Shown here piece by piece: positions 35,974 to 53,436 of a stretch of DNA of 64,000 nt. The notes beneath the pieces are model-generated. The model was not told the DNA's origin and made no database searches. It worked only from the letters and a program-made list of their open reading frames with translations. Location of the stretch: the IMG/VR virus record IMGVR_UViG_3300045988_183612. One strand, given 5' to 3'. Within the stretch, counting starts at the first letter, position 1; each line of letters begins with the position of its first letter. The translations under genes were made by a program, and so were the position numbers. This DNA is from a virus.

Positions 35974-36004
35974 AATAGCAGGTTAATTCCTGCTATTTTT
36001 TTTG
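35974..36004 (+). terminator. rho-independent terminator
   Basis: AATAGCAGGTTAATTCCTGCTATTTTTTTT. Confidence 0.75.
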
Positions 36005-36009
36005 TTTCA

Positions 36010-36020
36010 CTCCGTCATAT
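36010..36020 (+). promoter_or_regulatory. TTCTGTCATAT-family motif (CCGTCAT variant)
   Basis: CTCCGTCATAT, 114 bp before ATG 36126. Confidence 0.4.
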
Positions 36021-36125
36021 TAATATATATAAACTTTTTTAAGAAGGAATTATAATAATAGACTTAATAGAAATTAAAAAATCATATCAAAATAAAAATA
36101 AAGCAATTTGGAGGTCAACAAAATA

Positions 36126-36992: not shown

Positions 36993-37005
36993 AGGAGAAT
37001 ATAAT

Positions 37006-37902: not shown

Positions 37903-37928
37903 TATGGAAAGAAAAAAAGGAGAACATC

Positions 37929-38183
37929 ATGGATAAATATATAGTAGGCATAAGAAAAGGAATAGATAGTGTAATATTTTCTTGTATAATTGAAGCTTTT
38001 ATGTTCATTCCTGATATTGCTTTTGATGTTATTAAGCACTTTAATAACATAATCCCAGGAGTTATTTTAATTGTAGTTAACGCTTTATTTATTGCAAAAA
38101 TAATATCATCTTATATAATAATAGCTGATAAAAATGATGTCATTAATATTGATAATATTAATGAAAATATGGATGATAAATAG
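37929..38183 (+). CDS. small hypothetical membrane protein
   Basis: AAAAAGGAGAAC RBS. Ends in TAG followed by terminator 38215..38237. Confidence 0.45.
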   Translation: MDKYIVGIRKGIDSVIFSCIIEAFMFIPDIAFDVIKHFNNIIPGVILIVVNALFIAKIISSYIIIADKNDVINIDNINENMDDK

Positions 38184-38214
38184 CATTAATTCATAAAAAT
38201 AATTTTTAGTCCCA

Positions 38215-38237
38215 TTTAATTAAATGGGACTTTTTTT
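38215..38237 (+). terminator. rho-independent terminator
   Basis: TAGTCCCATTTAATTAAATGGGACTTTTTTT. Confidence 0.75.
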
Positions 38238-38246
38238 CTGTCATAT
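38236..38246 (+). promoter_or_regulatory. TTCTGTCATAT-family motif
   Basis: TTCTGTCATAT, 43 bp before ATG 38281. Confidence 0.6.
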
Positions 38247-38280
38247 ATTTAATAAATTTTAAGATAAAAGGAGTTAATAT

Positions 38281-38430
38281 ATGAAAGAAAATGGTAAATA
38301 TACAAGAATAAAAAAAGAAATTCAAAATTGGGAAATTAAAAGGGACCAGTATTCGGAATCCGGTAATGAATTAGAAGCTGACAGATGCCAGAACCGCATT
38401 GATGAATTATATAATTGCTTATGGCATTAG
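38281..38430 (+). CDS. small hypothetical protein (49 aa)
   Basis: AAAGGAG RBS, motif at 38236. Confidence 0.4.
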   Translation: MKENGKYTRIKKEIQNWEIKRDQYSESGNELEADRCQNRIDELYNCLWH

Positions 38431-38456
38431 TTATTAATTATTAGGAGAATTTCAAT

Positions 38457-39020
38457 ATGGATAAAAAGACAATAATTGCAGTTATAGGGAAAACATCAAG
38501 TAGCAAAGATACAGTCGCAAAGGTATTAAATGAAAAGTATGGAATTCCTTCAGTTGTTTCAATGACAACAAGGCCCAAAAGAGAATATGAGACAAATGGT
38601 GTGGAACATGTATTTATTTCAAAGGAAGAAATGAGCAATGTTTTAAAAGAAAAAACAATCATAGCTTATACAAAAAATAATAAAACTGGAATAGAATATT
38701 GTGCTGCATTAGAAGCTTTACCTTCAAATATATGCGTATACATTATAAATCCCGATGGCGTTAAATGGTTAAAAGAGCATAATAAACGTAATTTATTTAA
38801 TTTGATTTGTGTATATGTTGATTTGGCTGAAAATAAAATAATTAAAAGAGGGCTTCTGAGAGGAGATAATCCTGATACTTTGCGAATACGCTTAGAGAGT
38901 GAAAGAGAGGAATTTGATACATATAAAAATTCAAAAGAATATGATTTTTTAATAACTAACGATAAAGATTTGCAATATTTGTATCATCAGGTTGATTTAT
39001 TTTATTCGAAATATTTTTAA
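38457..39020 (+). CDS. guanylate kinase-like P-loop protein
   Basis: P-loop IGKTSSSKDT. MTTRPKREYETNGVEHVFISKEEM matches the guanylate kinase TTRPPRxGE..G.DY.F block. Confidence 0.5.
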   Translation: MDKKTIIAVIGKTSSSKDTVAKVLNEKYGIPSVVSMTTRPKREYETNGVEHVFISKEEMSNVLKEKTIIAYTKNNKTGIEYCAALEALPSNICVYIINPDGVKWLKEHNKRNLFNLICVYVDLAENKIIKRGLLRGDNPDTLRIRLESEREEFDTYKNSKEYDFLITNDKDLQYLYHQVDLFYSKYF

Positions 39021-39031
39021 ATGATTTTAGA

Positions 39032-39062
39032 AAAGAGGTGGCAAAAACCATCTCTTTTTTTA
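39032..39062 (+). terminator. rho-independent terminator
   Basis: AAAGAGGTGGCAAAAACCATCTCTTTTTTT. Confidence 0.7.
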
Positions 39063-39083
39063 TGTAAAAAAATGAGTAATTAA

Positions 39084-39094
39084 ATCTGTCATAT
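39084..39094 (+). promoter_or_regulatory. TTCTGTCATAT-family motif
   Basis: ATCTGTCATAT, 55 bp before ATG 39141. TTTTTTTATGTAAAAAAA sits 24 nt upstream. Confidence 0.55.
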
Positions 39095-39140
39095 ATTAAA
39101 TGTCTTTAAAAAATATTTTAATTAAGAAAGGATTTAACAA

Positions 39141-39254
39141 ATGGGAATTACAGCAAAGCCTTTTGGCAAGAAGAAATCAATTTTTGTAAAGATGGAGAAT
39201 AGTCTTTTAAAGGAAAAGGAAGAAAACAAGAAGAAAAATAATAAGGCAGAATAA
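39141..39254 (+). CDS. small basic hypothetical protein (37 aa)
   Basis: RBS, motif at 39084. Confidence 0.35.
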   Translation: MGITAKPFGKKKSIFVKMENSLLKEKEENKKKNNKAE

Positions 39255-39401
39255 TTTATTATTCAGCTTTAACATTTTCCTTTATTGTTTTTCAATAAAA
39301 GTAAATAGTGAAACTCAACCTAAGCATTTTGCTTACCTGTAAAAGGCAGGATTTTAATAATAAAGATTAGAGAAGAAGAAATAAAATGGGAGGAACAGAT
39401 T

Positions 39402-39569
39402 ATGTTAGATTTTTTGCATGATTGTGGCATTTATGTTGTGATGATAGCTATTATTTGGATCAGTGCAATAATGTTTGTGGTAGGCTATGGCATTAGAAAT
39501 ACAGCTAAGAATACGAATGTTGAAACACAGCAGACAGAAGCTGCAGTAGAGAACTATGCAAATGAATAG
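39402..39569 (+). CDS. small membrane protein (55 aa)
   Basis: AAATGGGAGG RBS. Single hydrophobic helix. Confidence 0.4.
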   Translation: MLDFLHDCGIYVVMIAIIWISAIMFVVGYGIRNTAKNTNVETQQTEAAVENYANE

Positions 39570-39830
39570 CAATTAATGTGTGATGTGTTTTGAGTAGTGT
39601 TGATCGATAATAAAGTTATGACTATAGCTGGTATTTTGAGCAATAAAATGAGGTGAATAAGACGCTCATCGATGGAATACATGCCATTGCCAGTGAAATA
39701 TCTGAAGATGGGATTTCAGTCGATGTTTATTTGTATATGATGATATTGAAGTATTAAAAATGCTATTTTAAAACTCTAAGTTAATTTTTAAATTATAGTT
39801 TTAGAGTATATTTAAATGTAAGGAGATTTT

Positions 39831-40427
39831 ATGTTAAATGTAATAAGCACATGTTTAGGCTGCTTAGGGGTTATCATTGTTGTTATAGGTTTTTTTAATA
39901 TACTTGGATCGATTTTAAATGATGATGAGTCAGGAGTATCTAGTGGAGTTGGTAACTGTATAGTGGGGACAATCTTGATTTCTTCAAGATTTATATTTTC
40001 TATTTTAATTTCAATTTTAAGAACCGAATATAATACTTCACAAACAGATTCGGAAAGTACTACAGAAGCTACAGAAAATATTGGAAATAGCGTATCAGAT
40101 GTTTTAACTAATATTCCGGTTAAGGGTATATTAATTGGTTTAGGTATTTTTATAGTTATTGTTATTGCGATAATAGTTATCGGTAATATAATTCGTAAGA
40201 ATAATGAAAAAAGAAAAACTGAAAAGGAAAAAATGGAGCATGTTCTTAAGACATCACTATCAGATCTTGTAAATGAAGAATTAGAAAAAGCTGATTATGC
40301 TAATAATAATTCTCAGAATTTAAGAACTGATTTTGATGAATATGTAGATTCTTTGGCAAAAAAGTATGATACAGAAAAGCAAAAATCATATAAAATAAAT
40401 GATAAAATCAGCAATCAATTAATTTAA
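39831..40427 (+). CDS. hypothetical membrane protein
   Basis: AAGGAG RBS. Two hydrophobic helices and a K/E-rich C-terminus. Confidence 0.5.
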   Translation: MLNVISTCLGCLGVIIVVIGFFNILGSILNDDESGVSSGVGNCIVGTILISSRFIFSILISILRTEYNTSQTDSESTTEATENIGNSVSDVLTNIPVKGILIGLGIFIVIVIAIIVIGNIIRKNNEKRKTEKEKMEHVLKTSLSDLVNEELEKADYANNNSQNLRTDFDEYVDSLAKKYDTEKQKSYKINDKISNQLI

Positions 40428-40497
40428 ATAAATTTTAATAATTAATAAAAAATAGGATTTACAAAAAACAAGTCCCATTTTTTGTTTATTTTTATTT

Positions 40498-40508
40498 TTC
40501 TGTCATAT
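40498..40508 (+). promoter_or_regulatory. TTCTGTCATAT-family motif
   Basis: TTCTGTCATAT, 49 bp before ATG 40549. Confidence 0.6.
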
Positions 40509-40548
40509 GTAATTTGTATTAAATAAAAAATAAAAGGAGGACTTAATC

Positions 40549-41598
40549 ATGAGAATAAACAAGATTAAGACTAATGTAACAGTATTAAACAAGGTAGACC
40601 GTAAGAATTATCAGATAATTAATGTTGATGGTTCAGGTGATTCCATTAAAGGAACAGCCAAGTTAATTAAGGAGGATGGTTCACTTGATGATTCGGTTAC
40701 TGCAGTAATTACAGCTAATAATGCAATAGCTTACAAGTTGATTGATGATCCTAATATTCCAGATGTTCCAACTGGATATACTGTAGAAAACGGAATTTTG
40801 CTTAAGAATGGAGTCCCTGCTACAGAACAGGGTTCACTGGTAATTAATAGTATTATTACAGGTGTTGCAGGAAGACTTATTTTATCTGTTGAACCAAGAG
40901 AATCAAGAGAAGGTTATTTCGATATTATGTCATATACAGTTGAGTCAGATAAGTTTAATAAGCTTATCAGAAGATCTATTCCAGAAGTTACAATCATTGC
41001 TTCTTCTGAGAATAAGATGCAGTTATATATGACATATTCAAGAACTTATACTAAGGATAAGAAGCTTGAAGATGGAACTATTGAAACAGATAATATCTTT
41101 GATGCTGCAGCAATCATGTTATATGATGTAATGTCTGATGCAGTTGTTGATCATGTTTCTTTTGCGGAGCCAATTAAGGCTGTAGATTCTGTTAAGGCAC
41201 CTAATGAAACAATTTTCGCAATTGAAGCAGATACAGTAGTCGATTCTGACGGAATTATCAAGGAAGATGATTATATTACATTAAGATTTGTTGCTTCTGA
41301 AGGCCATTCATTAAGTTTTTATAAGACAACAGCAATTGACAGTGTTCCAGAATCAATTTCAAAGGGATATAACGCAAGTCTTATTAAAGCTTCTTCAGGC
41401 AAGTGGTATATTAATGATATCACATATAAGATCCCAGATAAGATAGTTGCTGAGCTTGCAGGTTATAATGTAATTGTGGATATTACATCTAAGGATCATG
41501 TTACAAGAATTTCTCTTGCTAATACAAATACTATGGAGATAAAGACTCTTGTTATTTCTGAAACAAGAGATAGAGGAGACATTATAACCATAGAGTAA
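40549..41598 (+). CDS. paralog family protein A (possible virion/structural protein)
   Basis: Shares N- and C-terminal blocks (NVTVLNKVD..., VTRISLANTN.EIK..VI.ET.DRGD) with the next gene. AAAAGGAGG RBS. Confidence 0.55.
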   Translation: MRINKIKTNVTVLNKVDRKNYQIINVDGSGDSIKGTAKLIKEDGSLDDSVTAVITANNAIAYKLIDDPNIPDVPTGYTVENGILLKNGVPATEQGSLVINSIITGVAGRLILSVEPRESREGYFDIMSYTVESDKFNKLIRRSIPEVTIIASSENKMQLYMTYSRTYTKDKKLEDGTIETDNIFDAAAIMLYDVMSDAVVDHVSFAEPIKAVDSVKAPNETIFAIEADTVVDSDGIIKEDDYITLRFVASEGHSLSFYKTTAIDSVPESISKGYNASLIKASSGKWYINDITYKIPDKIVAELAGYNVIVDITSKDHVTRISLANTNTMEIKTLVISETRDRGDIITIE

Positions 41599-41682
41599 TT
41601 GATATTAACGGAATTCTCTATAATTAATTTAAAAAGTAGGGTTAAGGCATGTATATGCTTTAATCCTATTTTGTTTTATTTT

Positions 41683-41693
41683 TTCTGTCATAT
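41683..41693 (+). promoter_or_regulatory. TTCTGTCATAT-family motif
   Basis: TTCTGTCATAT, 45 bp before ATG 41730. Confidence 0.6.
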
Positions 41694-41729
41694 TTTATTT
41701 GAATAAAATAAAAAAGGAGATTTTTCATT

Positions 41730-42881
41730 ATGAGAGAAAACAAAATTTTAGAAAATGTAACAGTATTAAACAAGGTTGACAACAGACAGTATTTAATTAC
41801 ATCTGTTACCGATGGCGTAGGAACGGCTTGTCTTTTAGAAAATGGTGAAGTAAACGAGGATATATCTGTTATGATATCATCATCTAACGTAATTGCTTTT
41901 AGACTTATCAGCAATCCTAATATTCCAGATATTCCAGATGGATATTCAGTAGAAGACGGAATTTTACTTAAGGATGGTGTTGCTGCTACACAGCAGGGTT
42001 CACTGGTAATTAAGAGTATCGTTACATCTGTTCCAGGTAAGCTTTTATTAGCTGTATTGCCTAGAGAAAACACAACAGAACATGATGATTATATTGATTT
42101 ATTTGCTTATAAGCCGGATGAGGATAAGTTTAAGAAACTTATTCCAGTTTCAATTCCAATGCCGGAAGTTATAGGTGTATGTGACAAATATGTGATACTA
42201 AAGACTTCCTATACACACTTTGAAACAAAGAAGGATTGTAATGGAAAAGATATTTTCGCTGAATATTTTGATAATGCTGAAATTATCGTTTATGATGGTG
42301 CAAAGAATTATATTTCAAGTTATTTAATGCTTGACGCACCAATAAATAATGTCATTACTGTAAGAAATTCAATGAATGTACCTACATGGGTCATTGAATA
42401 TACAGAGCAGGTATGTAATAATAATTATTATAATCCTAATTGTGATTGTGGTTATGACTGCGAAAATGATTGTGGAGATTATGATGAATGCAATAATTGT
42501 GACTATCATTTAGATACAATTACTAATACTAAGGAATTAATCGAGATGGATCATATTAAAGCAGAAATGATTGCTCTTAATGGTGGTACATTAATGAGGC
42601 TCAATAGCATTAATATCCCTTCACATATTAAATCTGTTTCAATTGGTTGGAATAGTGCTGATTTTATCAGACTTGAAGACAGAATTATGATTGGAGAGTA
42701 TGTTGATAAAATCATTACTGATTCAAAGATAATGTCTGCAGTTGAAGGATATGATTGGATTGTCGATACAAGTAAGGAAGATAATGTAACAAGAATTGCT
42801 CTTGCAAACGACAATATGGAAATCAAGTATATTGTTATTACTGAAACATCAGATAGAGGAGACGTTGTTAAGGTAAAATAA
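41730..42881 (+). CDS. paralog family protein B with Cys-rich insert
   Basis: Homologous end-to-end to 40549..41598, with an inserted Cys/Asp/Asn-rich segment CNNNYYNPNCDCGYDCENDCGDYDECNNC. Confidence 0.55.
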   Translation: MRENKILENVTVLNKVDNRQYLITSVTDGVGTACLLENGEVNEDISVMISSSNVIAFRLISNPNIPDIPDGYSVEDGILLKDGVAATQQGSLVIKSIVTSVPGKLLLAVLPRENTTEHDDYIDLFAYKPDEDKFKKLIPVSIPMPEVIGVCDKYVILKTSYTHFETKKDCNGKDIFAEYFDNAEIIVYDGAKNYISSYLMLDAPINNVITVRNSMNVPTWVIEYTEQVCNNNYYNPNCDCGYDCENDCGDYDECNNCDYHLDTITNTKELIEMDHIKAEMIALNGGTLMRLNSINIPSHIKSVSIGWNSADFIRLEDRIMIGEYVDKIITDSKIMSAVEGYDWIVDTSKEDNVTRIALANDNMEIKYIVITETSDRGDVVKVK

Positions 42882-42912
42882 TAAAATAATTAACAATTAA
42901 ATAATGTGCATT

Positions 42913-42950
42913 TATACACCAGTTGACTAATCTCAACTGGTGTATTTTTT
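42913..42950 (+). terminator. rho-independent terminator
   Basis: TACACCAGTTGACTAATCTCAACTGGTGTATTTTTT. Confidence 0.75.
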
Positions 42951-42959
42951 CTGTCATGT
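42949..42959 (+). promoter_or_regulatory. TTCTGTCATAT-family motif
   Basis: TTCTGTCATGT, 42 bp before the dnaE exon-1 ATG 42993. Confidence 0.6.
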
Positions 42960-42992
42960 ATTAATTATAAAATTTATAAAGGAGGAAATTTA

Positions 42993-44786
42993 ATGTCAAT
43001 GTTTGAACATGTAAAAATTGGAGAATTAACAAAAAAGGTTATTGAGTCAGGAGTTACAGTGTGTGAACATAACCATCCAGGAGGCTCTTTGTTTGATGCC
43101 GTAGATGAACCTAAACGTTATTTAGATGCTGCATTTAATGCAGGATATACTAAATTTGCTGTTACGGACCATGCATCATTTTCAGCAATGCAAACATGTA
43201 TTGATTACGCTAAGAAAATAAGTACTGAGGAACATCCATTTAATATCATTTATGGCGTAGAGGCTTATATTGAAGTGCCACCATTTAAGATAAATGAACA
43301 GATTGGCCATATGATTATGTTAGCCACTTCAGAAAGAGGCAAGCATATTATTGATAAGTTAAATTCTAAGGCTTCTGAAAAAAGAATGGGAAAGCCTGTT
43401 ATTACAATATCAGATTTAAAGAAATATAACTTTAACGGTGATATAATAGCAACTTCAGCTTGCGTTTCGGGTGCACCAGCTCTGCAATTATTATCAGATG
43501 ATGTTTTGGATAAAATGATTAACAGAGAAAGAAAAGCACAGCAGCATACTACTGAAAAAGACGAGCTAGTTATACATGATTGTATAAGTCCTGATGATAA
43601 AGAATATCTTTCAGCTAAAGATGAATTTGAAAGGGTATCGGCAGATTTAGATGAATTGATTAATATTCGTGATTCCAAGGAACTTAAATCAGAAAGAACA
43701 CAGATTTCAAGAAAATTAAGAGATGCAAGAAAGTGTTTAAATGATGATGATCCAGAGCTTATTAAACTGATTAACGAATATGAGGAGATAAATAATAAAA
43801 TTCTGGAAGCTAAAGATAAAATTCCTAATGTCAGAAAATTAGTTAATGCTAAGAAAGCCGAGTTGAAGGATATAAGTCTTAAGGTAGAGGAATACATTAA
43901 TCATGAAAATAAGATACAGCATTATGAATCATTAAAGAAAAGCCCAATAGAATTAATGTCTGAAGCAGAAAAGACAATGCTTTTTTATCAGGAAATTTTT
44001 GGAGCAGGTAATTATTACATTGAAGTTCAGAATCATGGGCTTGAAATGGAAAGCAGAACATATCCTGTGTTAGCTCAGTTAGCAAGGAAGCATAATATTC
44101 CATTAGTTGCTGCTAATGATGCACATATGGCAGATAATTCTGATAGAAGTATTGATATGCGTAATGTAGCTAAATTTTTAAGATTTATTAAGATAAGTGA
44201 GTCGGAATCAGATAAAGAGTTATATGTAAAGACACCTTATGAACTTGCTCAGGCCTTATCAGCTATATTAACAGATGATCAGGTTGCAGAAGCACTCAAT
44301 AACTTAAATGTAATTGGAAAAAGATGTGCTTATATTCCAGAAAAATCTAATCATTATCCAGTATTTGATAAGAATAAGGATTCAAACGAATTATTAAGAT
44401 CTGAAGCAATTAAGGGAATTAATTGGAGATATCCTAACGGAAAAGGATGGGATGAAGAACATCAGAAACGAATGGAATACGAACTTAATATTATCATTCA
44501 GATGGGCTTTGCCGATTATCATTTAATTGTAAAGGACTTCCTGGAATATGGAAGAATTTGTGGATTAGTACCTATGGATAAACTATCAGAAGTACCTTTA
44601 ACAATTGAAGGTGCAAAAGAGTATGTTAAGGCTCACAATTATAATACCGGAATTGGAATAGGCATTGGAAGAGGTTCAGGTGCCGGTTCATTGGTTACAT
44701 ATTTACTTGGTATTACCGGAATTGATCCATTTAAGTATAATCTGATTTTTGAACGATTCTTAAATCCAGAAAGAGTAAGTATGCCT
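42993..44786 (+). CDS. dnaE: DNA polymerase III alpha (DnaE-type) exon 1: PHP domain with coiled-coil insertion
   Basis: PHP motifs [33 protein letters not shown]...[10 protein letters not shown]. Exon ends ...[13 protein letters not shown] at the conserved DnaE SMP|DIDIDF junction. Read-through into the intron gives a spurious tail to 44834. Confidence 0.8.
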
Positions 44787-45211
44787 AAATATATTGGGCG
44801 TTCAGCGTGGACTCTAACTCAGAGGTGTGCTTAATATTTTATTATTAAGTGCTAACGGTAGAAGTTGAATAAGACTGCTATATAAAGTGTCACAACAGGA
44901 TATATAGCTTAACCCATAGACGAAGCAGCTTCGTAAGAGAACCTACGGTCCTAATATTTTTATATAAAAGATATTGAAGGATAGCAGGCGATACCGTGCT
45001 AAGATTATAAATAATATTATATAAATAAAAAATTGTTCGTATATAATATTATTTATTTTAAAGTGTAACGACTATCCTTTTTAAGGAGTACAACTGAGAA
45101 TGGTTACAGTTGGAAGTGCGTTGAAATATAATATTAATAATATTATATTGAGATATAGTCTAATCCCACTTATACAAGTGTTAAAGTACTACGAAAGTAG
45201 GGGTATATTTG
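44787..45211 (+). other. group I self-splicing intron (no ORF) in dnaE
   Basis: 5' exon ends in U and the intron ends in G. Conserved core elements AACGACTATCC (R, P7 5' strand) and GAGATATAGTCTAA (S, P7 3' strand) are in the right order. Flanking exons join into the continuous conserved DnaE sequence. Confidence 0.75.
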
Positions 45212-45967
45212 GATATCGATAGTGATCTTGCTCTTGGAGTAAGAGAAAAGACAATTGAGTATGTAAGAGCTAAATATGGTAGTGAAGCTGTTGTTGGAAT
45301 TATTACAGAATCAAGACAGCAGGCTAAAGGTGCTATCAGAGATGCTGCAAGATATTATGGAAAGAAAGCCTATGATGATGAAAAGAAATTCTTATCTTTA
45401 GGAGATCAGATTCGTAAGAAAGTGCCTGCTAAAGCAACTAATTTTGAAGATATTGTTGGCATGAAAGATACTAATAGGGTTGATGAATTAGGCATTAATA
45501 TTCAGGACAGCGTTTCTTTGTTAGATTTTTTAAAGGATGAATATAATAGTAATCCAGATGCTATTTCTATTCTTAATATTGCAGCTCATTGCGAAGGTAT
45601 GCTTACGACATACGGACAACATGCCGCAGGTGTTATTATTTATGATAGTAATGATGTTACTGATTATATTCCTATTAGAGATGGAAAAAAGGGAATTAAA
45701 ACTACAGAAATGGACATGATTCAGTGCGAAGCTAATGGATTATTAAAAATGGATTTTCTTGGATTAAAAACTCTTACAATTATTACTGACACACTCAGAA
45801 TGATTCAGAGAGATACAGGAGAAGTAATTGATGTAATGAATATTCCATTAGAGGGTCCTAAAGCTGATAAGGTATACAAAGAAGTATATGCAAAAGGAAG
45901 AACTAAGAATGTTTTCCAGTTTGAGTCAGCCGGTATGAGGAATAACCTTAAGAAGTTATGCTCATAG
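45212..45967 (+). CDS. dnaE: DNA polymerase III alpha exon 2 (palm region)
   Basis: DIDSDLALGVREKTIEYVRAKYG...AIRDAARYYG, MDFLGLKTL and VFQFESAGMRNNLKKL match the DnaE palm region. Ends in TAG-TGA, followed by a terminator. Confidence 0.8.
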   Translation, partial: DIDSDLALGVREKTIEYVRAKYGSEAVVGIITESRQQAKGAIRDAARYYGKKAYDDEKKFLSLGDQIRKKVPAKATNFEDIVGMKDTNRVDELGINIQDSVSLLDFLKDEYNSNPDAISILNIAAHCEGMLTTYGQHAAGVIIYDSNDVTDYIPIRDGKKGIKTTEMDMIQCEANGLLKMDFLGLKTLTIITDTLRMIQRDTGEVIDVMNIPLEGPKADKVYKEVYAKGRTKNVFQFESAGMRNNLKKLCS

Positions 45968-45996
45968 TGAATAGTTAATTGAATATTTTGTATTAA

Positions 45997-46026
45997 AACG
46001 CATGTCATTATGATGTGCGTTTTTTC
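45997..46026 (+). terminator. rho-independent terminator after dnaE exon 2
   Basis: ACGCATGTCATTATGATGTGCGTTTTTT (stem includes G-U pairs). Confidence 0.6.
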
Positions 46027-46034
46027 TGTCATAT
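46024..46034 (+). promoter_or_regulatory. TTCTGTCATAT-family motif
   Basis: TTCTGTCATAT, 46 bp before ATG 46072. Confidence 0.6.
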
Positions 46035-46071
46035 TTCTTTTAAATTATAATAAATAAAGGAGAACAATATT

Positions 46072-46308
46072 ATGGAGAAAAATAATAAAACTCTTATGCA
46101 ACGGTTTATTGAGGCTGGATATTCTGCAAAAGATATATTTCACCATGAATCAGATTTATATGTATTTGTCACACCAATTACTACTAGAGTTATTAATGAA
46201 TGGTGTAAGGAAACAGGATTTGATAAGGATTGGCATTGCCCTATATTCACAGATCAGATAACTGAGAAACAAATGTATGATTGTGCATTCCAATACTATA
46301 CTGAATAA
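46072..46308 (+). CDS. hypothetical protein (78 aa)
   Basis: AAAGGAGAAC RBS, motif at 46024. Confidence 0.5.
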   Translation: MEKNNKTLMQRFIEAGYSAKDIFHHESDLYVFVTPITTRVINEWCKETGFDKDWHCPIFTDQITEKQMYDCAFQYYTE

Positions 46309-46335
46309 AAATAAATAAAGTTTAAGGAGAAAAAT

Positions 46336-46968
46336 ATGGCAATATTTCATGAACATTTACAATACCATCCAGACACAGTAGAGAAACATAAAATTACAGA
46401 TAAAGAAATCAAATTTTTGTCTGATTTGCAGCATGAATTAAATACACAGGACCATGTAGGACAAGCTGATCCTCGATTTTGGGTTATTATGGGAAAAGAA
46501 AAGTGTATTGTTCCAGAAGGATATGAAGACGGTGTAACATTAATAGATAATGAGGCAGTCGAAGAAATTGCTGATAATATTGATGATGCAATTGTATTTT
46601 TTAATAAGGAATTTGAAGAAAACGGTGATGCTTGGGTTATTTCAAAAGAATATGATGGATATTATGTTACATCAAAAGAAGATAATGATTACGAGGAATG
46701 TTTAGCTGATCTTGATGATTTAAAGACTTGGTTGAATGAGCATAATTATGGCAGATATACTTTCACCTGTTATGCATATAGAGATAAAATTTATGAAAAC
46801 ACAATGTTTTTAACAGAAAAGGCAGCCGCTGAACATCTAAAGGCAAATCGTTATCATTACGATGAGTACGCTCATACCTATGCTATGACTGCATGGAGAA
46901 GTCCTGAAGTAGAAGATATCATTAAGATTTTACAGTCAGTAGATTTTTCTGCTATTGTTAGAAAATAA
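46336..46968 (+). CDS. acidic hypothetical protein
   Basis: AAGGAG RBS. Confidence 0.5.
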   Translation: MAIFHEHLQYHPDTVEKHKITDKEIKFLSDLQHELNTQDHVGQADPRFWVIMGKEKCIVPEGYEDGVTLIDNEAVEEIADNIDDAIVFFNKEFEENGDAWVISKEYDGYYVTSKEDNDYEECLADLDDLKTWLNEHNYGRYTFTCYAYRDKIYENTMFLTEKAAAEHLKANRYHYDEYAHTYAMTAWRSPEVEDIIKILQSVDFSAIVRK

Positions 46969-46980
46969 AAGAATGATATT

Positions 46981-47034
46981 ATCGCAATTAAGCAAAAAAC
47001 CCCAACCGACAATAGCCGGTTGTGGGTAGTTCAA
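46981..47034 (+). repeat. 55-bp structured intergenic repeat, copy 5
   Basis: ATCGCAATTAAGCAAAAAACCCCAACCGACAATAGCCGGTTGTGGGTAGTTCA, in the leader of the nucleotidyltransferase gene. Base changes in the stem are partly compensatory. Confidence 0.7.
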
Positions 47035-47056
47035 TTACAAGGATAGGAAAGAGAAT

Positions 47057-48046
47057 ATGATAAATAAAAATATATTAAATATGCCTGAGTATTCATTTTT
47101 AAAGGAAAATCAAAATTTAGATAAGAATATTTGTATACTTGGATTAGGTGGTAGCAGAGCATATGGGACAAATCTTCCAGAAAGCGATATTGATATAAGA
47201 GGAGTTGCTGTTAGAAGAAAAGAAGATATCTTGTTAGGTAATGATTTTGAAAATTTTGTAGATGTTAATACAGATACAACTATTTATAGTTTTGACAAAA
47301 TTATTGAATTATTAACTAAATGCAATCCAAATACTATTGAATTTTTAGGATTAGATGCAGATGATTATATTTATAAAAATGAAATTGGGGAATTATTATT
47401 AAAAAATAAAGATATTTTTTTATCAAATAGATGTATCAATACATTTAGTGAATATGCATTGCAACAGTTATATCGTATGCAGCAGAAGACCAATGCTGCT
47501 TTAACGGAAAAAGAATTAAATAGACACATTTCTGGAGTGCTTAATAATATGTCCAAGAAAATGAATGATAAGTACAATTTAGATGAAAATAATGTGTCTT
47601 TTTATTTGGTTGATGGCAAAATCAAATGTAATATTATTGCAACACAGTGTTCAATGGAAGATTTGTCAGGAATGCTTTCAGAATTTAATAACACTTTAAG
47701 AGATTACCGGAAAACAAGTAAAAGGAATGAACATGCATTAAATCATGGTAAAATAGCAAAACATAGTATGCATTTACTTAGATTATATATGATGGGAATT
47801 GATTTAGTTTCTGAAGGGAAAATTCAAACGAAAAGAATTAAAGAACATGATTTGTTGATGGACATTAGAAATGGTGTATATCTTGATGAAAATGGAATCC
47901 CTAATAAACATTTTTTCAAAATAGTAGATGAATACAAGAATAAGTTTGAAAATGCATGTAAAAACTCTGTATTGCCAGATGAGCCGGATATAGACAAAAT
48001 CAATAAATTTAGAATGGAAATCAATGAGAAAATTGTAAAGTTATAA
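47057..48046 (+). CDS. Pol-beta superfamily nucleotidyltransferase (GS...DxD motif)
   Basis: LGLGGSRAYGTNLPESDIDIRG is a G[GS]x9-13[DE]h[DE]h nucleotidyltransferase signature. The 329-aa size is compatible with the MNT-like or CD-NTase-like classes. Preceded by 55-bp repeat copy 5. Confidence 0.55.
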   Translation: MINKNILNMPEYSFLKENQNLDKNICILGLGGSRAYGTNLPESDIDIRGVAVRRKEDILLGNDFENFVDVNTDTTIYSFDKIIELLTKCNPNTIEFLGLDADDYIYKNEIGELLLKNKDIFLSNRCINTFSEYALQQLYRMQQKTNAALTEKELNRHISGVLNNMSKKMNDKYNLDENNVSFYLVDGKIKCNIIATQCSMEDLSGMLSEFNNTLRDYRKTSKRNEHALNHGKIAKHSMHLLRLYMMGIDLVSEGKIQTKRIKEHDLLMDIRNGVYLDENGIPNKHFFKIVDEYKNKFENACKNSVLPDEPDIDKINKFRMEINEKIVKL

Positions 48047-48051
48047 AATTA

Positions 48052-48079
48052 AACTGGTTACTATTAGTAGCCAGTTTTT
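48052..48079 (+). terminator. rho-independent terminator
   Basis: AACTGGTTACTATTAGTAGCCAGTTTTTTT. Confidence 0.65.
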
Positions 48080-48085
48080 TTATTT

Positions 48086-48096
48086 TTCTGTCATTG
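48086..48096 (+). promoter_or_regulatory. TTCTGTCATAT-family motif
   Basis: TTCTGTCATTG, 43 bp before ATG 48131. Confidence 0.55.
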
Positions 48097-48130
48097 TATT
48101 ATTATAAAATTTAAAAAGGAGAATAAAATT

Positions 48131-48589
48131 ATGAAAACTAATGCATTTGAAATTAAGGAAAACAACTTAGAAACAGTAAATGATATGATAGAGGCACTAT
48201 TGGAAGTGCCTAAGAATTATTTACTGCATCCATTAGGACAGAAATGCGCAATTGCAGTTGATAATTACCATAAATGTGTATATTTAGACGATCCTAATAT
48301 GATGAGCGAGTTTAAATATGAATTAGAAGAAGATATAAAAGAAAATGATGATTGGGATGGAGAAATCCCTGACGACAGTGATAGCCTTGAAAGATTTTCA
48401 TTTTATTATGTTTGGATAGGATATGAGTCAGATTGCGGAGACAATTCAGGAGAATATTCATATTTTTTAAATGAGGATATGGCAAATGATTTCTTTGAAT
48501 CTTCTAAAAATACTGATAAAACATTAGGAACTGCTTCATTTATAAACGGCAGATTAGAACCTGTTAAAGTTATAAAAAGTACATTGTAA
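48131..48589 (+). CDS. acidic hypothetical protein
   Basis: AAAAGGAG RBS, motif at 48086. Confidence 0.5.
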   Translation: MKTNAFEIKENNLETVNDMIEALLEVPKNYLLHPLGQKCAIAVDNYHKCVYLDDPNMMSEFKYELEEDIKENDDWDGEIPDDSDSLERFSFYYVWIGYESDCGDNSGEYSYFLNEDMANDFFESSKNTDKTLGTASFINGRLEPVKVIKSTL

Positions 48590-48604
48590 AAAGAAAGGAA
48601 TTTT

Positions 48605-48874
48605 ATGAAAACTTTAAATATTATAAATAACTTTATTAAAACTTCAGAATCAGAAACAGAAAATAATATGTTGAATATCATTAAAAATACTTTAATAAAT
48701 GAGATTTCAGAAGCTTCTAAAGAAGTTTCTGAGGCGAGTTGGTTGACTGAAAGTACATATGATGACGATGGATATTCTAACGATGATGGCGAGGAAGTTA
48801 TTTATGCAGATACAGCAGTTAATATAATTGAAAGCGTCATATATGATAATTCTGATGAAAATAATAACAACTAA
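48605..48874 (+). CDS. acidic hypothetical protein
   Basis: AAGGAA RBS. Confidence 0.45.
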   Translation: MKTLNIINNFIKTSESETENNMLNIIKNTLINEISEASKEVSEASWLTESTYDDDGYSNDDGEEVIYADTAVNIIESVIYDNSDENNNN

Positions 48875-48886
48875 GGAGAATAAATA

Positions 48887-49144
48887 ATGATAATAATAAG
48901 AAATGGTAAGGAAATAAAATTAACAGATGATGAGATTTATAAGGCTCATAAGGAATTTGTTTCAACATGGATGATTAATACAGCTAAAGAAATTATTCAG
49001 CCTCAGTATCATTCTGATATTACTGAGAATGATTATATTGATATTGGTGAAGCAGCTTATGATACTTACGCAGAAGGTAATGGACTTACTGAATATGAAG
49101 CTGTTGAAGATGCTGTGGAAAAATTCTTAAGTGAAAGAAATTGA
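48887..49144 (+). CDS. hypothetical protein
   Basis: AAGGAG RBS. Confidence 0.45.
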   Translation: MIIIRNGKEIKLTDDEIYKAHKEFVSTWMINTAKEIIQPQYHSDITENDYIDIGEAAYDTYAEGNGLTEYEAVEDAVEKFLSERN

Positions 49145-49205
49145 ATATTTTTCATAACTGAATAAGATTTTTTGAAAGCGGGAGACTTATGTTTTCTGCT
49201 TTTTT

Positions 49206-49216
49206 TTCTGTCATAA
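49206..49216 (+). promoter_or_regulatory. TTCTGTCATAT-family motif
   Basis: TTCTGTCATAA, 40 bp before the flap-exonuclease ATG 49248. Confidence 0.6.
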
Positions 49217-49247
49217 ATATATTAAAAATTATAAAGGAGAAAAATTA

Positions 49248-50129
49248 ATGAAAAATATTATGATTTTTGATGGGAATTACATTCTCAGAAGATCTTTTTA
49301 CGGTGTTCCAGAATTAAAAACCTCAAAGGGATTTCCGACTAATGCAATTAAAGGAGCTTTAAATACAATTCTATATATGAAAGAAAAGTATAGTCCTGAT
49401 GAATTAATTGTTGCATTTGATACTGCAAAGCCAACTTTCAGGCATTTAATGTATAATGGGTACAAGGCAACTAGAGATCCTGCACCGGAAGAATTTAAGA
49501 TTCAGAGACAGGCTATTGTCCCTATTCTTAAAACAATGAATATATGTGTTATTGAAAAAGAAGGATATGAAGCAGATGATATTATAGGGACAATTTCAAC
49601 TATTGAAAGTAAAGCAGGTAATAAAGTAAATATCATATCTGCGGATCATGATTTGTTGCAATTATGTAATGATTTAGTATCATTAATTGTTCCAAACAAC
49701 CCGGAAGATATTTGGACTCCGGCAGAAATTATGAATGAATATTCCGTTACTCCTAAACAGTTTATTGATGTAAAAGCATTAATGGGAGATAAATCGGATA
49801 ATATTCCTGGAGCTGCAGGTATTGGACCTAAAACTGCAAGTAAACTAATACATAAGTATGGAAATTTGTTTAACATATATATGAATATTTCAGATATTGA
49901 ATCTAATATGTCTAAAGGAAAAAGTATTTCAACTTGTTTGATAAATAGTGAAGATAATATTTTGTTGTCAAAAATTTTAGCAACAATAAAAACAGATGTA
50001 GAACTTGATGCTTATAACGCTAATGTATCAGATAATATGTTAAATGAAATTAGTGAGCAGATATTAGGTTTGTATGAACTTAACAGTATTATAAGTATAC
50101 TTAAAAATGGTAACATTGTTTGCCTATAA
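49248..50129 (+). CDS. 5'-3' exonuclease / flap endonuclease (Pol I N-terminal domain family)
   Basis: MIFDGNYILRRSFYG, FDTAKPTFRHLMYNGYKATR, EADDIIGT, SADHDLLQL and the H3TH motif LMGDKSDNIPGAAGIGPKTASKLI. Confidence 0.9.
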   Translation: MKNIMIFDGNYILRRSFYGVPELKTSKGFPTNAIKGALNTILYMKEKYSPDELIVAFDTAKPTFRHLMYNGYKATRDPAPEEFKIQRQAIVPILKTMNICVIEKEGYEADDIIGTISTIESKAGNKVNIISADHDLLQLCNDLVSLIVPNNPEDIWTPAEIMNEYSVTPKQFIDVKALMGDKSDNIPGAAGIGPKTASKLIHKYGNLFNIYMNISDIESNMSKGKSISTCLINSEDNILLSKILATIKTDVELDAYNANVSDNMLNEISEQILGLYELNSIISILKNGNIVCL

Positions 50130-50257
50130 TTATATTTAAGGAGAAAATCATGATAATTGAAATTTTAACAAATGGTTAGTGTAATATTAAATTCGAAAAG
50201 ACAAATTGTAGAGTAAACGCTTCATATTTAACCGATGTCCAAAATGACTTATTAAAT

Positions 50258-50566
50258 ATGTGCATTAATTATTATAACAATAATACGGCATCCTGTTATT
50301 TTGATTCTGAAGGCTCTACAGCAACGCTAGTTTTGACACCGGATACAGCTTTCATAATTCATGAATGGGAGCATTTAGGCTTAATTAAACTATTGGAATT
50401 ACCAAAGGAAATCATTGATTGTATAGTAAAGGAAATTGTAAAACAAATTGATTCTGTTGCAAGTTTTTTATCATGTGAATGTGATGATTTATTTCAGTAT
50501 GAAAAAAGAAAATCTGAATTAATACAAAAATTATATTTTGTACATGATAAGAGTAATTCAAATTAA
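50258..50566 (+). CDS. hypothetical protein (possibly 50150..50566 with an in-frame TAG)
   Basis: ATG at 50258 has a weak RBS. A strong AAGGAGAAAATCATG at 50150 is in the same frame but hits a TAG at 50175. Confidence 0.4.
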   Translation: MCINYYNNNTASCYFDSEGSTATLVLTPDTAFIIHEWEHLGLIKLLELPKEIIDCIVKEIVKQIDSVASFLSCECDDLFQYEKRKSELIQKLYFVHDKSNSN

Positions 50567-50617
50567 AACAAATGCTTAATAACAAGTACCCATTAATAGG
50601 TACTTGTTATTTTATTT

Positions 50618-50628
50618 TTCTGTCATTT
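50618..50628 (+). promoter_or_regulatory. TTCTGTCATAT-family motif
   Basis: TTCTGTCATTT, 46 bp before ATG 50666. Confidence 0.55.
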
Positions 50629-50665
50629 ATTTATTATAACAATAAATGGAAGGAGAGTAAAAAAT

Positions 50666-51247
50666 ATGATTAAAGAATTTAAGGAATTAGTAAATGCAAT
50701 AAATTCGCCAGATAATGAATATAGAGAGAATGATTTAGATATGTTAAATTACAATATGGCCGCATTTGGAGAATATGTACAGATTGTTTATCATCAAAAC
50801 TATTCAACTCCAATTAAATATGCTACACTTGAGGGAGAAGAATTACGAGAAGCTATTCAGTCTATGGATAAAAATCGGAGAATTAAACATGAAGCTGCAA
50901 TAGCTGCGTGTTCCCAAATCAATAGAGATTGTGAATATTATAATGTTCCTAAGTTTTGCCCTGAAACAACTGATAGACATATAATCGCAGATTTTTGCGC
51001 TCAGGTAACGGCTGCTTTTTATCTTGACGGAATCGGTAGAGATGCTAAAACTATAGATGATGTTATAAAGGCAATGACTCAAAATTGTAAAAGTGTTAAT
51101 ATTAGTAATATAACAAACAATATTGACACAAATGAACTATCAGATATTGATTTAGATTTAGGCGGAGAAGATGATGAAGATAAAATTATGCCAGATGTAA
51201 TTCATACTGAAATTAATAAAGATAACAGAGAGGAAGAAGTAAGATAA
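50666..51247 (+). CDS. hypothetical protein
   Basis: GGAAGGAG RBS, motif at 50618. Confidence 0.5.
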   Translation: MIKEFKELVNAINSPDNEYRENDLDMLNYNMAAFGEYVQIVYHQNYSTPIKYATLEGEELREAIQSMDKNRRIKHEAAIAACSQINRDCEYYNVPKFCPETTDRHIIADFCAQVTAAFYLDGIGRDAKTIDDVIKAMTQNCKSVNISNITNNIDTNELSDIDLDLGGEDDEDKIMPDVIHTEINKDNREEEVR

Positions 51248-51552
51248 TGGTAACTTTTATTAGAACATATGAATCCGGTCCATGGATAATAGATGAATAC
51301 GATAATAAAACATATAGAATTCTATTAAGAAGAGATTTAAGAACAGGTAAAGTCATAAGATTCTTTTTTACTCCAAAGATTCCATATTATGATATTGAAA
51401 TTAAAACCATAAAAGATGATTTTTATATTAGTATTACTGGTAATGTTTCATATGATATTAATGATATTGATAAATTAAAAGGCAGAATAGATTATGCTAA
51501 AAATTTGATAACTTATATAAAAGAAAATATATGTAACAAGTATTCTTTTTAA
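51247..51552 (+). CDS. hypothetical protein
   Basis: ATAATGG overlap with the upstream gene (translational coupling). Confidence 0.45.
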   Translation: MVTFIRTYESGPWIIDEYDNKTYRILLRRDLRTGKVIRFFFTPKIPYYDIEIKTIKDDFYISITGNVSYDINDIDKLKGRIDYAKNLITYIKENICNKYSF

Positions 51553-51561
51553 TATTCATGC

Positions 51562-51588
51562 AAGCGTCCAAAATTGGACGCTTTTTTT
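51562..51588 (+). terminator. rho-independent terminator before the DnaE C-terminal piece
   Basis: AAGCGTCCAAAATTGGACGCTTTTTTT. Confidence 0.75.
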
Positions 51589-51592
51589 AATT

Positions 51593-51603
51593 TTCTGTCA
51601 TAA
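51593..51603 (+). promoter_or_regulatory. TTCTGTCATAT-family motif
   Basis: TTCTGTCATAA, 44 bp before ATG 51639 of the DnaE C-terminal piece. Confidence 0.6.
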
Positions 51604-51638
51604 ATTATATAGTTATGAATTGAAAGGAGAAATTTAAA

Positions 51639-53324
51639 ATGAATAAAACAGGTATTGAAGATTTAATAGCAATGAATGCTTTATATCGTCCTGGTCCTGA
51701 AAAGTTTATACCTGATTTCATAGAAGGTAAAAAGGATGCATCTAAGATTAAATATTTATGTCCTCAATTAGAGCCAATTTTGTCAACTACTTATGGACAG
51801 ATAGTTTATCAGGAACAGGTAATGCAGATTGTTCGTGATTTAGCAGGATATACATGGGGGCGTTCTGATTTAGTCCGTAGAGCTATGTCAAAAAAACATC
51901 AGGATGAAATTGATGCTGAAAGACACACTTTTGTATATGGCAATGCTGATACTAAAAAAGAAAATGAAGCATTAGTACCAGGTTGTATTTCAAATGGAAT
52001 ACCAGAAGAAATTGCTCATAAAATCTGGGATGCGATGGTTGATTTTGCTAAGTATGCTTTTAATAAGTCACATGCCTCTGCTTATGCTGTTACATCATAT
52101 TGGACTGCTTTTCTTAAGTATTATTATCCGGCTTATTATCTTACAAATGTAATAAATCATACTGATAAGATTGATGAAGTCGCTGATGATATTAGTGATG
52201 CTCTTGATTTTGGAGTAAAGGTATTGCCTCCGGACATTAATGCTTCAAATTTACATTGTGATGTTGTAGATGGAAATATTTTGTATGGTCTGAGTAATAT
52301 TAAGAATGTTGGAGCAGAAGCAGCTAAAATTATTGAAGATAGAAATGTTAATGGAGAATATTCTGATATTAAGGATTTTATCAAACGAACAAATATTAAT
52401 GCAGAAGCATTAAGTTCCTTAATTAAAGCAGGTGCTTTTGATTGCCTTGGTTATACAAGAACAATGATATCATTAGATATGATTTGTATGAAAGAAATTC
52501 AGGATACAATCAAGAAAATCAGAGAGAAGAGTAAGTTTATTGAAAACGCAAGTAAAGTTATTGAATTTGTGGAAGATTATATTGATCTTGATGAGTTTAA
52601 GGAAAAAATTTCAGAAGAAAATATTTCCTTTCAAGTTACTTCAAAAAAGATGCCAACTAAGGATTCCATAATTAAACGTATCAATTCAGCTAAGACAGTT
52701 ATAGAAAGCTTAGAAGATGATCTTGAAAATATAGATATTGATTATGTAGAAGATGATTTAGGTCAGATTCTAAATGATGAAAAAGAAGTGTTAGGTGTTT
52801 ATATTACAGGGCATCCAATTGATGAGTATAATATTTATACAGATCCCATTTCTGATATTTCAACAGAAGTTAATGATGTATCTGGTATAATTAAAAATCT
52901 TGTTATAAGAAAGGACAGAAATGGATACGAATGGGTAACTTTTGAGGTAGAAGATAAAACAGGTTCTATTAATGGTGTATGTTTTTCTAAGGATTATGCA
53001 AATATTAGAGACTTACTTGTTAATGATGCTAAATTATGTTTATCAGGGAAAATTCAAGTAGATGATTTTAGATCTTCAGATGACGAAACTGTATATCAGA
53101 TTATTGTTAAATCTGTTAAACCTTTAAAGAAAAATAAGTCTTCATATAGATTTATTTGTACTGTTTCCGAAGTAAACGATGTTCTTGATTCTATTAATGA
53201 ATATCTGGTGGACGTTGATGGAGATTATTTATATTGGCTTGATTCAACAACTGGAATTGAACATTTATGTAAGAAATTCATTAACCCTGATATGTCAGCC
53301 CCTTCAATAGTACGCAAATGCTAA
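51639..53324 (+). CDS. dnaE: DNA polymerase III alpha C-terminal piece (fingers, HhH, OB) as a separate ORF
   Basis: ALYRPGP and NKSHASAYAVTSYWTAFLKYYYP are DnaE motifs. Has its own motif (51593), AAAGGAGA RBS and ATG. The N-terminus abuts the end of exon 2 in the DnaE alignment. Confidence 0.8.
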   Translation: MNKTGIEDLIAMNALYRPGPEKFIPDFIEGKKDASKIKYLCPQLEPILSTTYGQIVYQEQVMQIVRDLAGYTWGRSDLVRRAMSKKHQDEIDAERHTFVYGNADTKKENEALVPGCISNGIPEEIAHKIWDAMVDFAKYAFNKSHASAYAVTSYWTAFLKYYYPAYYLTNVINHTDKIDEVADDISDALDFGVKVLPPDINASNLHCDVVDGNILYGLSNIKNVGAEAAKIIEDRNVNGEYSDIKDFIKRTNINAEALSSLIKAGAFDCLGYTRTMISLDMICMKEIQDTIKKIREKSKFIENASKVIEFVEDYIDLDEFKEKISEENISFQVTSKKMPTKDSIIKRINSAKTVIESLEDDLENIDIDYVEDDLGQILNDEKEVLGVYITGHPIDEYNIYTDPISDISTEVNDVSGIIKNLVIRKDRNGYEWVTFEVEDKTGSINGVCFSKDYANIRDLLVNDAKLCLSGKIQVDDFRSSDDETVYQIIVKSVKPLKKNKSSYRFICTVSEVNDVLDSINEYLVDVDGDYLYWLDSTTGIEHLCKKFINPDMSAPSIVRKC

Positions 53325-53345
53325 TTTAATATTTATTTTATGTTT

Positions 53346-53375
53346 TACCGCTGTTTATTGCAGCGGTATTTTTTT
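53346..53375 (+). terminator. rho-independent terminator
   Basis: TACCGCTGTTTATTGCAGCGGTATTTTTTT. Confidence 0.75.
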
Positions 53376-53397
53376 ATGTAAAGATTTTTAAAATTGT

Positions 53398-53408
53398 ATC
53401 TGTCATAT
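53398..53408 (+). promoter_or_regulatory. TTCTGTCATAT-family motif
   Basis: ATCTGTCATAT, 37 bp before ATG 53437. It heads the CPBP/sigma-factor operon. TTTTTTTATGTAAAG sits 24 nt upstream. Confidence 0.55.
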
Positions 53409-53436
53409 ATATATTAGAAAGGTTGGAGGAAAATAT

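Follow-up and report, generated by a model that had tools for sequence, protein, structure and literature searches.

What separates the two coding parts of the DnaE-type polymerase gene in this viral genome? The window, by which we mean the whole stretch of 64,000 nucleotides that was analyzed (IMG/VR virus record IMGVR_UViG_3300045988_183612), encodes the N-terminal piece of such a polymerase, and its coding sequence is interrupted by 425 nt. We propose, with a probability of about 90%, that positions 44787 to 45211 are a group I intron whose IA-type core is similar to those of T4 td and Twort, and that this intron is presumably spliced from the transcript. The locus is made up of the following parts.

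42993..44786, plus strand: dnaE exon 1, which covers the PHP domain and the beginning of the palm and ends in ...NPERVSMP; placed by ORF, Pfam and colinearity with L005 (described below).
44787..45211, plus strand: group I intron without a homing-endonuclease ORF, 425 nt; precisely absent from L005, with a fold supported by covariation.
45212..45967, plus strand: dnaE exon 2, beginning with DIDSD... and covering the remainder of the palm and ~60 positions at the start of the finger domain; placed by Pfam and colinearity with L005.

The open reading frame called for exon 1 (42993-44834) encodes the N terminus of a DnaE-type polymerase (PHP and DNA_pol3_alpha) and meets a stop 16 codons into the insert, and the ORF list and Pfam show the same polymerase family continued in the frame at 45209-45967. 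A T precedes the insert, its last base is G, and none of its three frames is free of stops. The last codon of exon 1, CCT, occupies 44784-44786, with T44786 as the U of the 5′ splice site; exon 2 opens with GAT ATC GAT AGT GAT (DIDSD) at 45212 and has its stop codon at 45965-45967. A reading of the locus made from the DNA letters alone (the sequence-only reading) had claimed that the exons jointly rebuild a conserved DnaE block. Protein comparison confirms this, as the Pfam DNA_pol3_alpha profile is covered by exon 1 up to position 102 and by exon 2 from position 103, and the joined peptide aligns without a gap over the junction to the Thermus aquaticus Pol III alpha structures 3E0D and 2HPI. 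In the motif ...SMP/DIDSD, the intron site separates the codon for Pro from that for the first catalytic Asp. We take the Asp-x-Asp that follows the junction to be the palm active-site aspartates, as established for Pol III alpha. Further downstream, in the finger domain, the polymerase of the window is also split into two genes.

The exact ends of the insertion are fixed by an allele that lacks it. When the product of conceptual splicing was used as a protein query, the search returned a 93.7-kb contig, L005, which encodes an uninterrupted protein of 849 aa with 99% identity to the spliced window product. Positions 1-9794 of L005 correspond to window positions 35007-44786, and 9795-18550 to 45212-53962, at ~98% identity over 18.5 kb; the 2550-nt ORF of L005 corresponds to the two window exons joined at ATGCCT/GATATC, from which it differs by 32 substitutions. 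The boundaries first proposed from the window, an element of 425 nt that follows a U and ends in G, are therefore borne out to the base. A third allele is found in L004 (the same IMG/VR contig as L032), which is ~98% identical and carries the same intron at a length of 940 nt. The window copy has 514 nt fewer, with the deletion point at 45028 in the P6a loop, a position set by BLAST, as the gap was misplaced when the two copies were aligned globally by MAFFT. The 514-nt insert of L004 contains a Shine-Dalgarno sequence and an ORF of 172 aa with an HNH_3 domain and a NUMOD4 motif. A search for related loci with exon 1 likewise led to a single contig with ~98% DNA identity and the longer, endonuclease-bearing intron; a value of 100% identity applies to the best protein segment only. 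No ORF of more than 40 aa is present in the window intron (the longest that touches it in the ORF list has 40 aa, at 45100-45222), in agreement with the earlier statement that a homing-endonuclease ORF is missing. Hence, three states of one site, empty, with intron and HNH endonuclease, and with intron but no endonuclease, coexist in ~98%-identical genomes. The window copy is either a derivative that lost its endonuclease or one that never gained one. Positions 45029-45046 (AAAATTGTTCGTATATAA) are identical to the end of the L004 HNH ORF (its final five codons and stop), and this retained tail mildly favors loss over primary absence, without proving the direction.

Does the RNA have the architecture of a group I intron? 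We aligned 18 distinct same-site introns, including those of Bacillus phage G, a Staphylococcus SPbeta-like phage and Mammaliicoccus phage phi127, after trimming the P6a loops and adding 8 nt from each exon (487 columns). A structure model comprising P1, P10, P3 to P9, P7.1 and P7.2 (21 helices, 97 pairs) was written from the window sequence and this alignment. In the window it has the following elements.

44781..44801, plus strand: P1, formed by exon AUGCCU (44781-86) and the internal guide GGGCGU (44796-801), with 6/6 pairs present in the window.
44791..44795, plus strand: P10, 5′ strand, AUAUU, paired with exon 2 GAUAU (45212-45216); 5/5 pairs in the window, 90.6% of alignment cells.
44802..44807, plus strand: P3, 5′ strand, UCAGCG, paired with CGUUGA (45119-45124), one base before P8; 5/6 pairs compensatory, 98% of cells paired.
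44812..44849, plus strand: two hairpins between the P3 5′ strand and J3/4, CUCU/AGAG at 44812-24 and CUUAAUA/UAUUAAG at 44830-49.
44850..44853, plus strand: tentative inner P3, UGCU paired with AGUA (45087-45090), then J3/4 AAC; 4/4 pairs in the window.
44856..45064, plus strand: P4-P6 domain, all helices fully paired in the window.
44856-60 / 44992-96, plus strand: P4, CGGUA/UACCG; 1 compensatory pair.
44861-65 / 44928-32, plus strand: P5, GAAGU/GCUUC, covarying with UCAGU/GCUGA.
44877-44908, plus strand: P5a and P5b, with compensatory pairs in each.
44942-44988, plus strand: extra hairpin of the P4-P6 domain, with compensatory pairs.
44998-45000 / 45062-64, plus strand: P6, GCU/AGU, with the alternates GCC/GGU, GCG/CGU and GUC/GAU.
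45007-23 / 45040-56, plus strand: P6a, a 17-bp stem.
45024..45046, plus strand: P6a loop and start of the P6a 3′ strand, the site of the homing-endonuclease ORF in relatives.
45067-45077, plus strand: R-like element, AACGACTATCC.
45070..45075, plus strand: P7, 5′ strand, GACUAU (in the R element), paired with AUAGUC at 45155-45160 (in the S element); 6/6 pairs in the window.
45076-86, plus strand: P7.1, CCUU/AAGG; covaries, absent in 4/18 relatives.
45092-111, plus strand: P7.2, AACUG/CAGUU; 4/5 pairs with double changes, 100% of cells paired.
45126..45148, plus strand: P8 hairpin, 10 bp; 5 pairs with double changes.
45150-45163, plus strand: S-like element, GAGATATAGTCTAA.
45165..45203, plus strand: P9 region, CCC/GGG around two hairpins, ACUU/AAGU and CUAC-GAAA-GUAG; the closing pair covaries between CG and GC.
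45211, plus strand: omega-G, the guanosine that ends the intron at its 3′ splice site; a G in 18/18 aligned homologues as in the window.

The 5′ splice site is marked by the wobble U44786·G44796 in P1, which is U·G in 18/18 homologues. Position -4 of P1 covaries with the exon codon before Pro: the pair is GC in 11 homologues (Met or Leu codons), CG in 4 (Tyr or Phe) and AU in 3 (Leu). The guide sequence thus tracks the exon, which is strong evidence for the use of P1. P10 covaries little because the exon is nearly invariant. All seven pairs of the hairpin at 44830-49 show double changes; the one at 44812-24 has a single such pair, with 88.7% of cells paired. The inner P3 (UGCU/AGUA) is retained tentatively, as it shows no covariation, two of its pairs being invariant and two having mismatches among the homologues. 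Near the 3′ end, the GAAA tetraloop (45193-96) is invariant and its hairpin has double changes in 4/4 pairs. Three other pairings were discarded: GUGCU/AGUAC as P3, in which only 4 bp hold and none covaries (the covarying P3 is UCAGCG/CGUUGA), and, by eye on the alignment, GUAC/GUGC as a closing pair of P7.2, which fails in L016 and L055, and CAGU/GCUG as P5, which fails in L008 and was replaced by GAAGU/GCUUC.

The R-like and S-like elements had been proposed from the start to form P7, and this pairing holds up well: the elements at 45067-45077 and 45150-45163 supply 6/6 P7 pairs, and the pattern AACGACTATC-N50-80-GATATAGTC is present a single time in the window, compared with 0/100 dinucleotide-preserving shuffles. 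Five of the P7 pairs are invariant in the 18 homologues. P7 is the helix expected to bind guanosine, and in the model it makes a pseudoknot with P3.

Over the whole model, 94.0% of alignment cells hold standard pairs, compared with 34-46% when the 3′ partners are slid by 1-3 columns; 48 of the 97 pairs change on both sides (16-25 in the slid controls), and the covariation score is 0.429, compared with 0.06-0.09 after sliding and reached by 0/500 shuffles. These counts are to be read with the knowledge that the fold was derived from the same alignment on which they were made and that, since several rows are close relatives, cell counts overstate the independent events; sturdier measures are the slid controls and the number of pairs that occur as several pair types. 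The unconstrained minimum free energy fold of the window intron has a z score of -3.81, better than 100/100 shuffles, and recovers P3, P4, P5a/b, P6a, P7.1, P8 and the hairpins of P9. An nhmmer search of the window with the alignment profile found no second copy of the intron.

We compared the window intron with the T4 td intron, which is annotated as group IA and carries I-TevI, and with the orf142 introns of Staphylococcus phage Twort. Window and td share UAACGACUAUCC followed by the P7.1 hairpin and then GGAGUA, the P7 3′ strand GAGAUAUAGUCU, and CCGUGCUAA at the P4/P6 boundary (P4′/P6); the R/S core, AACGACUAUCC plus GAGAUAUAGUCU, is identical in the two. The J6/7-P7 sequence UAACGACUAU is common to the window, td and Twort. 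As in td and Twort, introns of the dnaE lineage reside in a phage gene of DNA metabolism and carry the endonuclease ORF, if they have one, in the P6a loop. Peripheral hairpins P7.1 and P7.2 are typical of IA-type introns, and in the window both are found between P7 and the P3 3′ strand, where the IA2 (td/Twort) type has them. Because the core is shared with td, we call the intron IA-type and td-like, a label that stops short of a subgroup. There are also differences. The host gene of the window intron is a DnaE-type polymerase, and the window copy has no endonuclease ORF, unlike td and Twort. The P4-P5 region is much larger than that of td (about 130 nt, with the invariant blocks GUUGAAUAAGAC and GACGAAGC), and whereas P2 precedes P3 in td, the P3 5′ strand of the window comes directly after P1 and is separated from J3/4 by two hairpins. 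This layout apparently departs from the usual order P1-P2-P3-P4 and, together with the inner P3 that does not covary, is a point against our reading.

The splicing pathway of group I introns is established and consists of an attack by guanosine followed by exon ligation. For the window intron, the fold suggests how this would proceed. In the pre-mRNA, the guide GGGCGU would pair with the exon end AUGCCU to form P1, and AUAUU with the start of exon 2 to form P10. Free guanosine docked at P7 would attack after U44786, and the 3′-OH of exon 1, held by P1, would then attack after G45211, with exon 2 aligned by P10. Ligation would yield ...AUGCCU-GAUAUC..., which restores the reading frame and the catalytic Asp-x-Asp codons. 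We infer splicing, its dependence on guanosine and the mobility of the window intron from the sequence and its relatives. As it has no endonuclease gene, the window intron would not home on its own; its spread would still be possible by recombination or by means of the endonuclease of a co-infecting relative.

The group I identity proposed at the outset is supported by the U·G pair and the terminal G, P10, the P3/P7 pseudoknot, the P4-P6 domain, the covariation in 18 homologues and the empty allele. A check suggested in the sequence-only reading, the scan with the Rfam model Intron_gpI (RF00028), stays below its threshold. At the gathering score, the model has no match in the window; a local scan gives a partial match at 45072-45182 (P7 to P9) with 23.6 bits, below the curated cut-off of 50, and E = 0.0011. 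Rfam at the gathering threshold also reports no Intron_gpI on nine loci that hold clear homologues, including compact forms of 352-358 nt, its only finding there being one tRNA. Since these nine loci are missed too, the failure is a property of the whole lineage and does not count against the structural evidence, nor is the lack of a covariance-model match a valid test for refuting this intron. The model looks insensitive to the dnaE introns.

Could the element be a decayed group I intron that no longer splices, leaving dnaE as a pseudogene or a source of truncated product only? The homing-cycle model expects degeneration once an intron has lost its endonuclease, and the missing endonuclease gene, which fits this expectation, and the Rfam score below the threshold would speak for such a fate. 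We consider it unlikely, because every helix of the model, including all those of the core, is fully paired in the window copy, and because the intron, once the P6a loops are trimmed, differs by a single base (in the P8 loop) from the endonuclease-bearing copy of L004. Both exons next to it are intact and share 98.7% identity with the uninterrupted L005 allele, and seven other endonuclease-free copies at the same site (346-452 nt) keep the same fold.

Still less probable, in our judgment, is that the gene is split into two separately translated polypeptides that assemble without RNA splicing, the second being made from a TTG start at 45209. This codon does lie behind a Shine-Dalgarno-like AGGGG motif, a genuine split of this polymerase into two genes does exist in the finger domain, and the homologue in the SPbeta-like phage is annotated in GenBank as dnaE_2 plus dnaE_1. 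However, the break between Pro and the catalytic Asp-x-Asp bisects the active site, so that neither half would have a complete one, and the last three bases of the intron are no start codon in many homologues (AAG, TAG, AGG). A plain intergenic spacer would also need no conserved, covarying ribozyme fold with a guide that tracks the exon. The chance that the insertion is another kind of element altogether is negligible: DnaE is a well-known intein host, but an intein is excluded by the stops in all three frames, a group II intron is contradicted by a local Rfam scan of 44600-45400 whose only entries with E values of 10 or less are Intron_gpI and two matches by chance, and by the lack of a reverse-transcriptase ORF, and an assembly artefact by the presence of the same insertion in independent assemblies (L004, L006, L007) and in the genomes of cultured phages.

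A group I intron at this site is not confined to the window and its closest relatives. A blastn search of the intron against GenBank phages returned known phage intron regions and the same DnaE position in several phages, among them the following.

Bacillus phage G (gp329/gp330): same site, with an unannotated intron that carries a GIY-YIG endonuclease.
Staphylococcus phage SPbeta-like: a 31-codon ORF labeled "hypothetical protein" separates the annotated genes dnaE_2 and dnaE_1.
Mammaliicoccus phages phi116/phi127: DNA polymerase gene with a same-site intron and endonuclease, of the GIY-YIG type in phi127.

The introns of these phages share with the window the codon boundary (...P/DID...), a homologous RNA and the same fold. 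The 31-codon ORF of the SPbeta-like phage is a GIY-YIG remnant (MNLVKIYIITN..VYNGQ). In IMG/VR, a degenerate 25-nt pattern from the P3-P5 region retrieved 55 loci, of which 28 have a DnaE-type 5′ junction; L036, although missed by the junction pattern, is also a same-site case. In every resolved same-site case, the exons read ...P followed by D(I/V)D.D, and the residues before the site in the strongly diverged DnaE proteins are MP, LP or YP. The same-site introns range from 346 to 1207 nt, and every long copy has its endonuclease ORF in the P6a loop. These ORFs are of the HNH_3 family in L004, L006-L008 and L014, with a frameshift in that of L006, and of the GIY-YIG/NUMOD3 type in phage G, L016, L017, L055 and phi127; the endonucleases of phage G and phi127 therefore differ from the HNH_3 enzyme in the closest relatives of the window.

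We regard it as possible, rather than probable, that these introns form an undescribed and widespread IA-type lineage specialized on phage DnaE genes. Its members would sit at two sites or more, one in front of the catalytic DxD and one immediately past the finger domain, and would be characterized by an atypical layout with P3 after P1, two hairpins before J3/4 and a large conserved P5 extension. If this reading were true, the atypical layout would explain why Intron_gpI misses these introns, and the lineage would deserve a model or subgroup of its own.

How unusual is such an intron? Group I introns are classical residents of phage replication genes, with td, nrdB, the SPO1 and Bastille polymerases and the Twort introns as examples. 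Our literature search turned up group I introns in family A polymerases, terminase, ribonucleotide reductase (RNR) and recA, and described DnaE as an intein host (PMC2677866, PMC4760082). Moonbeam has group I introns in its terminase and polymerase (PMC4299906). Group I introns are present in the family A polymerase genes of SPO1/SP82, Bastille (I-BasI) and Moonbeam and are mobile, often accompanied by HNH or GIY-YIG endonucleases (PMC4299906; references in PMC2504315). Like the window intron, they interrupt a phage replicative polymerase at catalytic motifs that are highly conserved; unlike them, the window intron has an unrelated, C-family (DnaE) enzyme as its host. For a group I intron in phage dnaE, the searchable literature yielded no paper, and this is weak evidence because most subscription journals lie outside it. 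The claim that such introns are rarely reported in DnaE-type polymerases is thus correct for the searchable literature and incorrect for the sequence data, in which at least 28/55 IMG/VR loci and several cultured phages have one.

The element is real but ordinary in kind, and many same-site examples are present, unrecognized, in public genomes. It extends the targeting of catalytic motifs of replication enzymes by group I introns to a C-family polymerase and introduces no new mechanism. Because gene callers fragment the polymerase and the Rfam model is silent, the DnaE of many phages is mis-annotated as truncated or duplicated. The value of the locus, modest as it is, lies in annotation and in the stages of the homing cycle: the empty site, the intron with an HNH endonuclease and the intron without one form a clean natural series in ~98%-identical genomes that illustrates this cycle, to which distant relatives add frameshifted or truncated endonucleases and another endonuclease family in the same loop.

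The majority of phage DnaE genes run through this site without a break: 340 records match a junction-spanning query over 80% or more of its length in a single place. The intron-core motif is also found in family A polymerase genes (L042, L035). Among cultured phages with same-site introns, the hosts are Bacillus, Staphylococcus and Mammaliicoccus.

Besides the intron, the DnaE-type polymerase gene of the window has a second break, which lies in the finger domain and gives two ordinary genes, part A and part B.

DnaE finger-domain split: regions concerned and the two products
Window 45965-46035 and 51639-53324; L068 (the 61%-identical relative) 10001-15021; L066, a further retrieved locus: regions concerned
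Part A: 849 aa after splicing; stop at 45967, then a terminator-like hairpin
Part B: has a ribosome-binding site of its own and starts at 51639; 561 aa comprising the finger remainder, HhH and OB

When aligned with a fused relative of 1403 aa, part A matches residues 15 to 840 and part B matches residues 845 to 1400; hence, there is no intein at the split and almost nothing is absent there. The gap between the two parts spans about 5.7 kb in the window and holds roughly 10 ORFs, including those for an RlaP-like nucleotidyltransferase and a 5'-3' exonuclease. The same gap is only about 0.8 kb long in the 61%-identical relative, with an ADP-ribosyltransferase-like gene inside, and in a 55%-identical relative there is no part B within 10 kb. 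Such a C-family polymerase, which occurs naturally in two pieces separated by a slot for variable cargo, is perhaps worth a separate study.

The 61%-identical relative also carries an IS200/IS605-type pair (L068 8215-9754; a Y1 transposase and an OrfB/TnpB-like gene) directly upstream of its dnaE N-terminal gene.

At a second site in phage DnaE genes, just past the finger domain, lie introns that share the P3-P5 core motif of the window intron.

DnaE introns at the second site
After ...SSYMFG: L011, L047
After ...MSFGY: L019, L037, L043, L051, L059

Part B of the window is not interrupted at the corresponding motif, FAKYAFNKSH. The core motif also occurs in two family A polymerase genes (L042 and L035), one of which contains an intein as well.

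Within the P5 extension of the intron, two blocks, GUUGAAUAAGAC (window 44866-44877; columns 93-102 of A1, the alignment of 18 distinct same-site dnaE introns) and GACGAAGC (44918-44925; columns 161-168), are invariant or near-invariant in all 18 introns, while the neighboring helices covary freely. The GAAA tetraloop of the last intron hairpin is likewise invariant in A1. The two blocks and the tetraloop may plausibly form a tertiary contact.

Two related introns form an endonuclease decay series. In the Staphylococcus SPbeta-like intron (L001 4202-4297; KT429160), a 31-codon "hypothetical protein" reads like the N terminus of a GIY-YIG endonuclease (KIYIITN...VYNGQ). The HNH ORF of L006 (6095-6641) is split by a frameshift into two ORFs, one of 67 or 76 aa, depending on the ORF call, and one of 108 aa.
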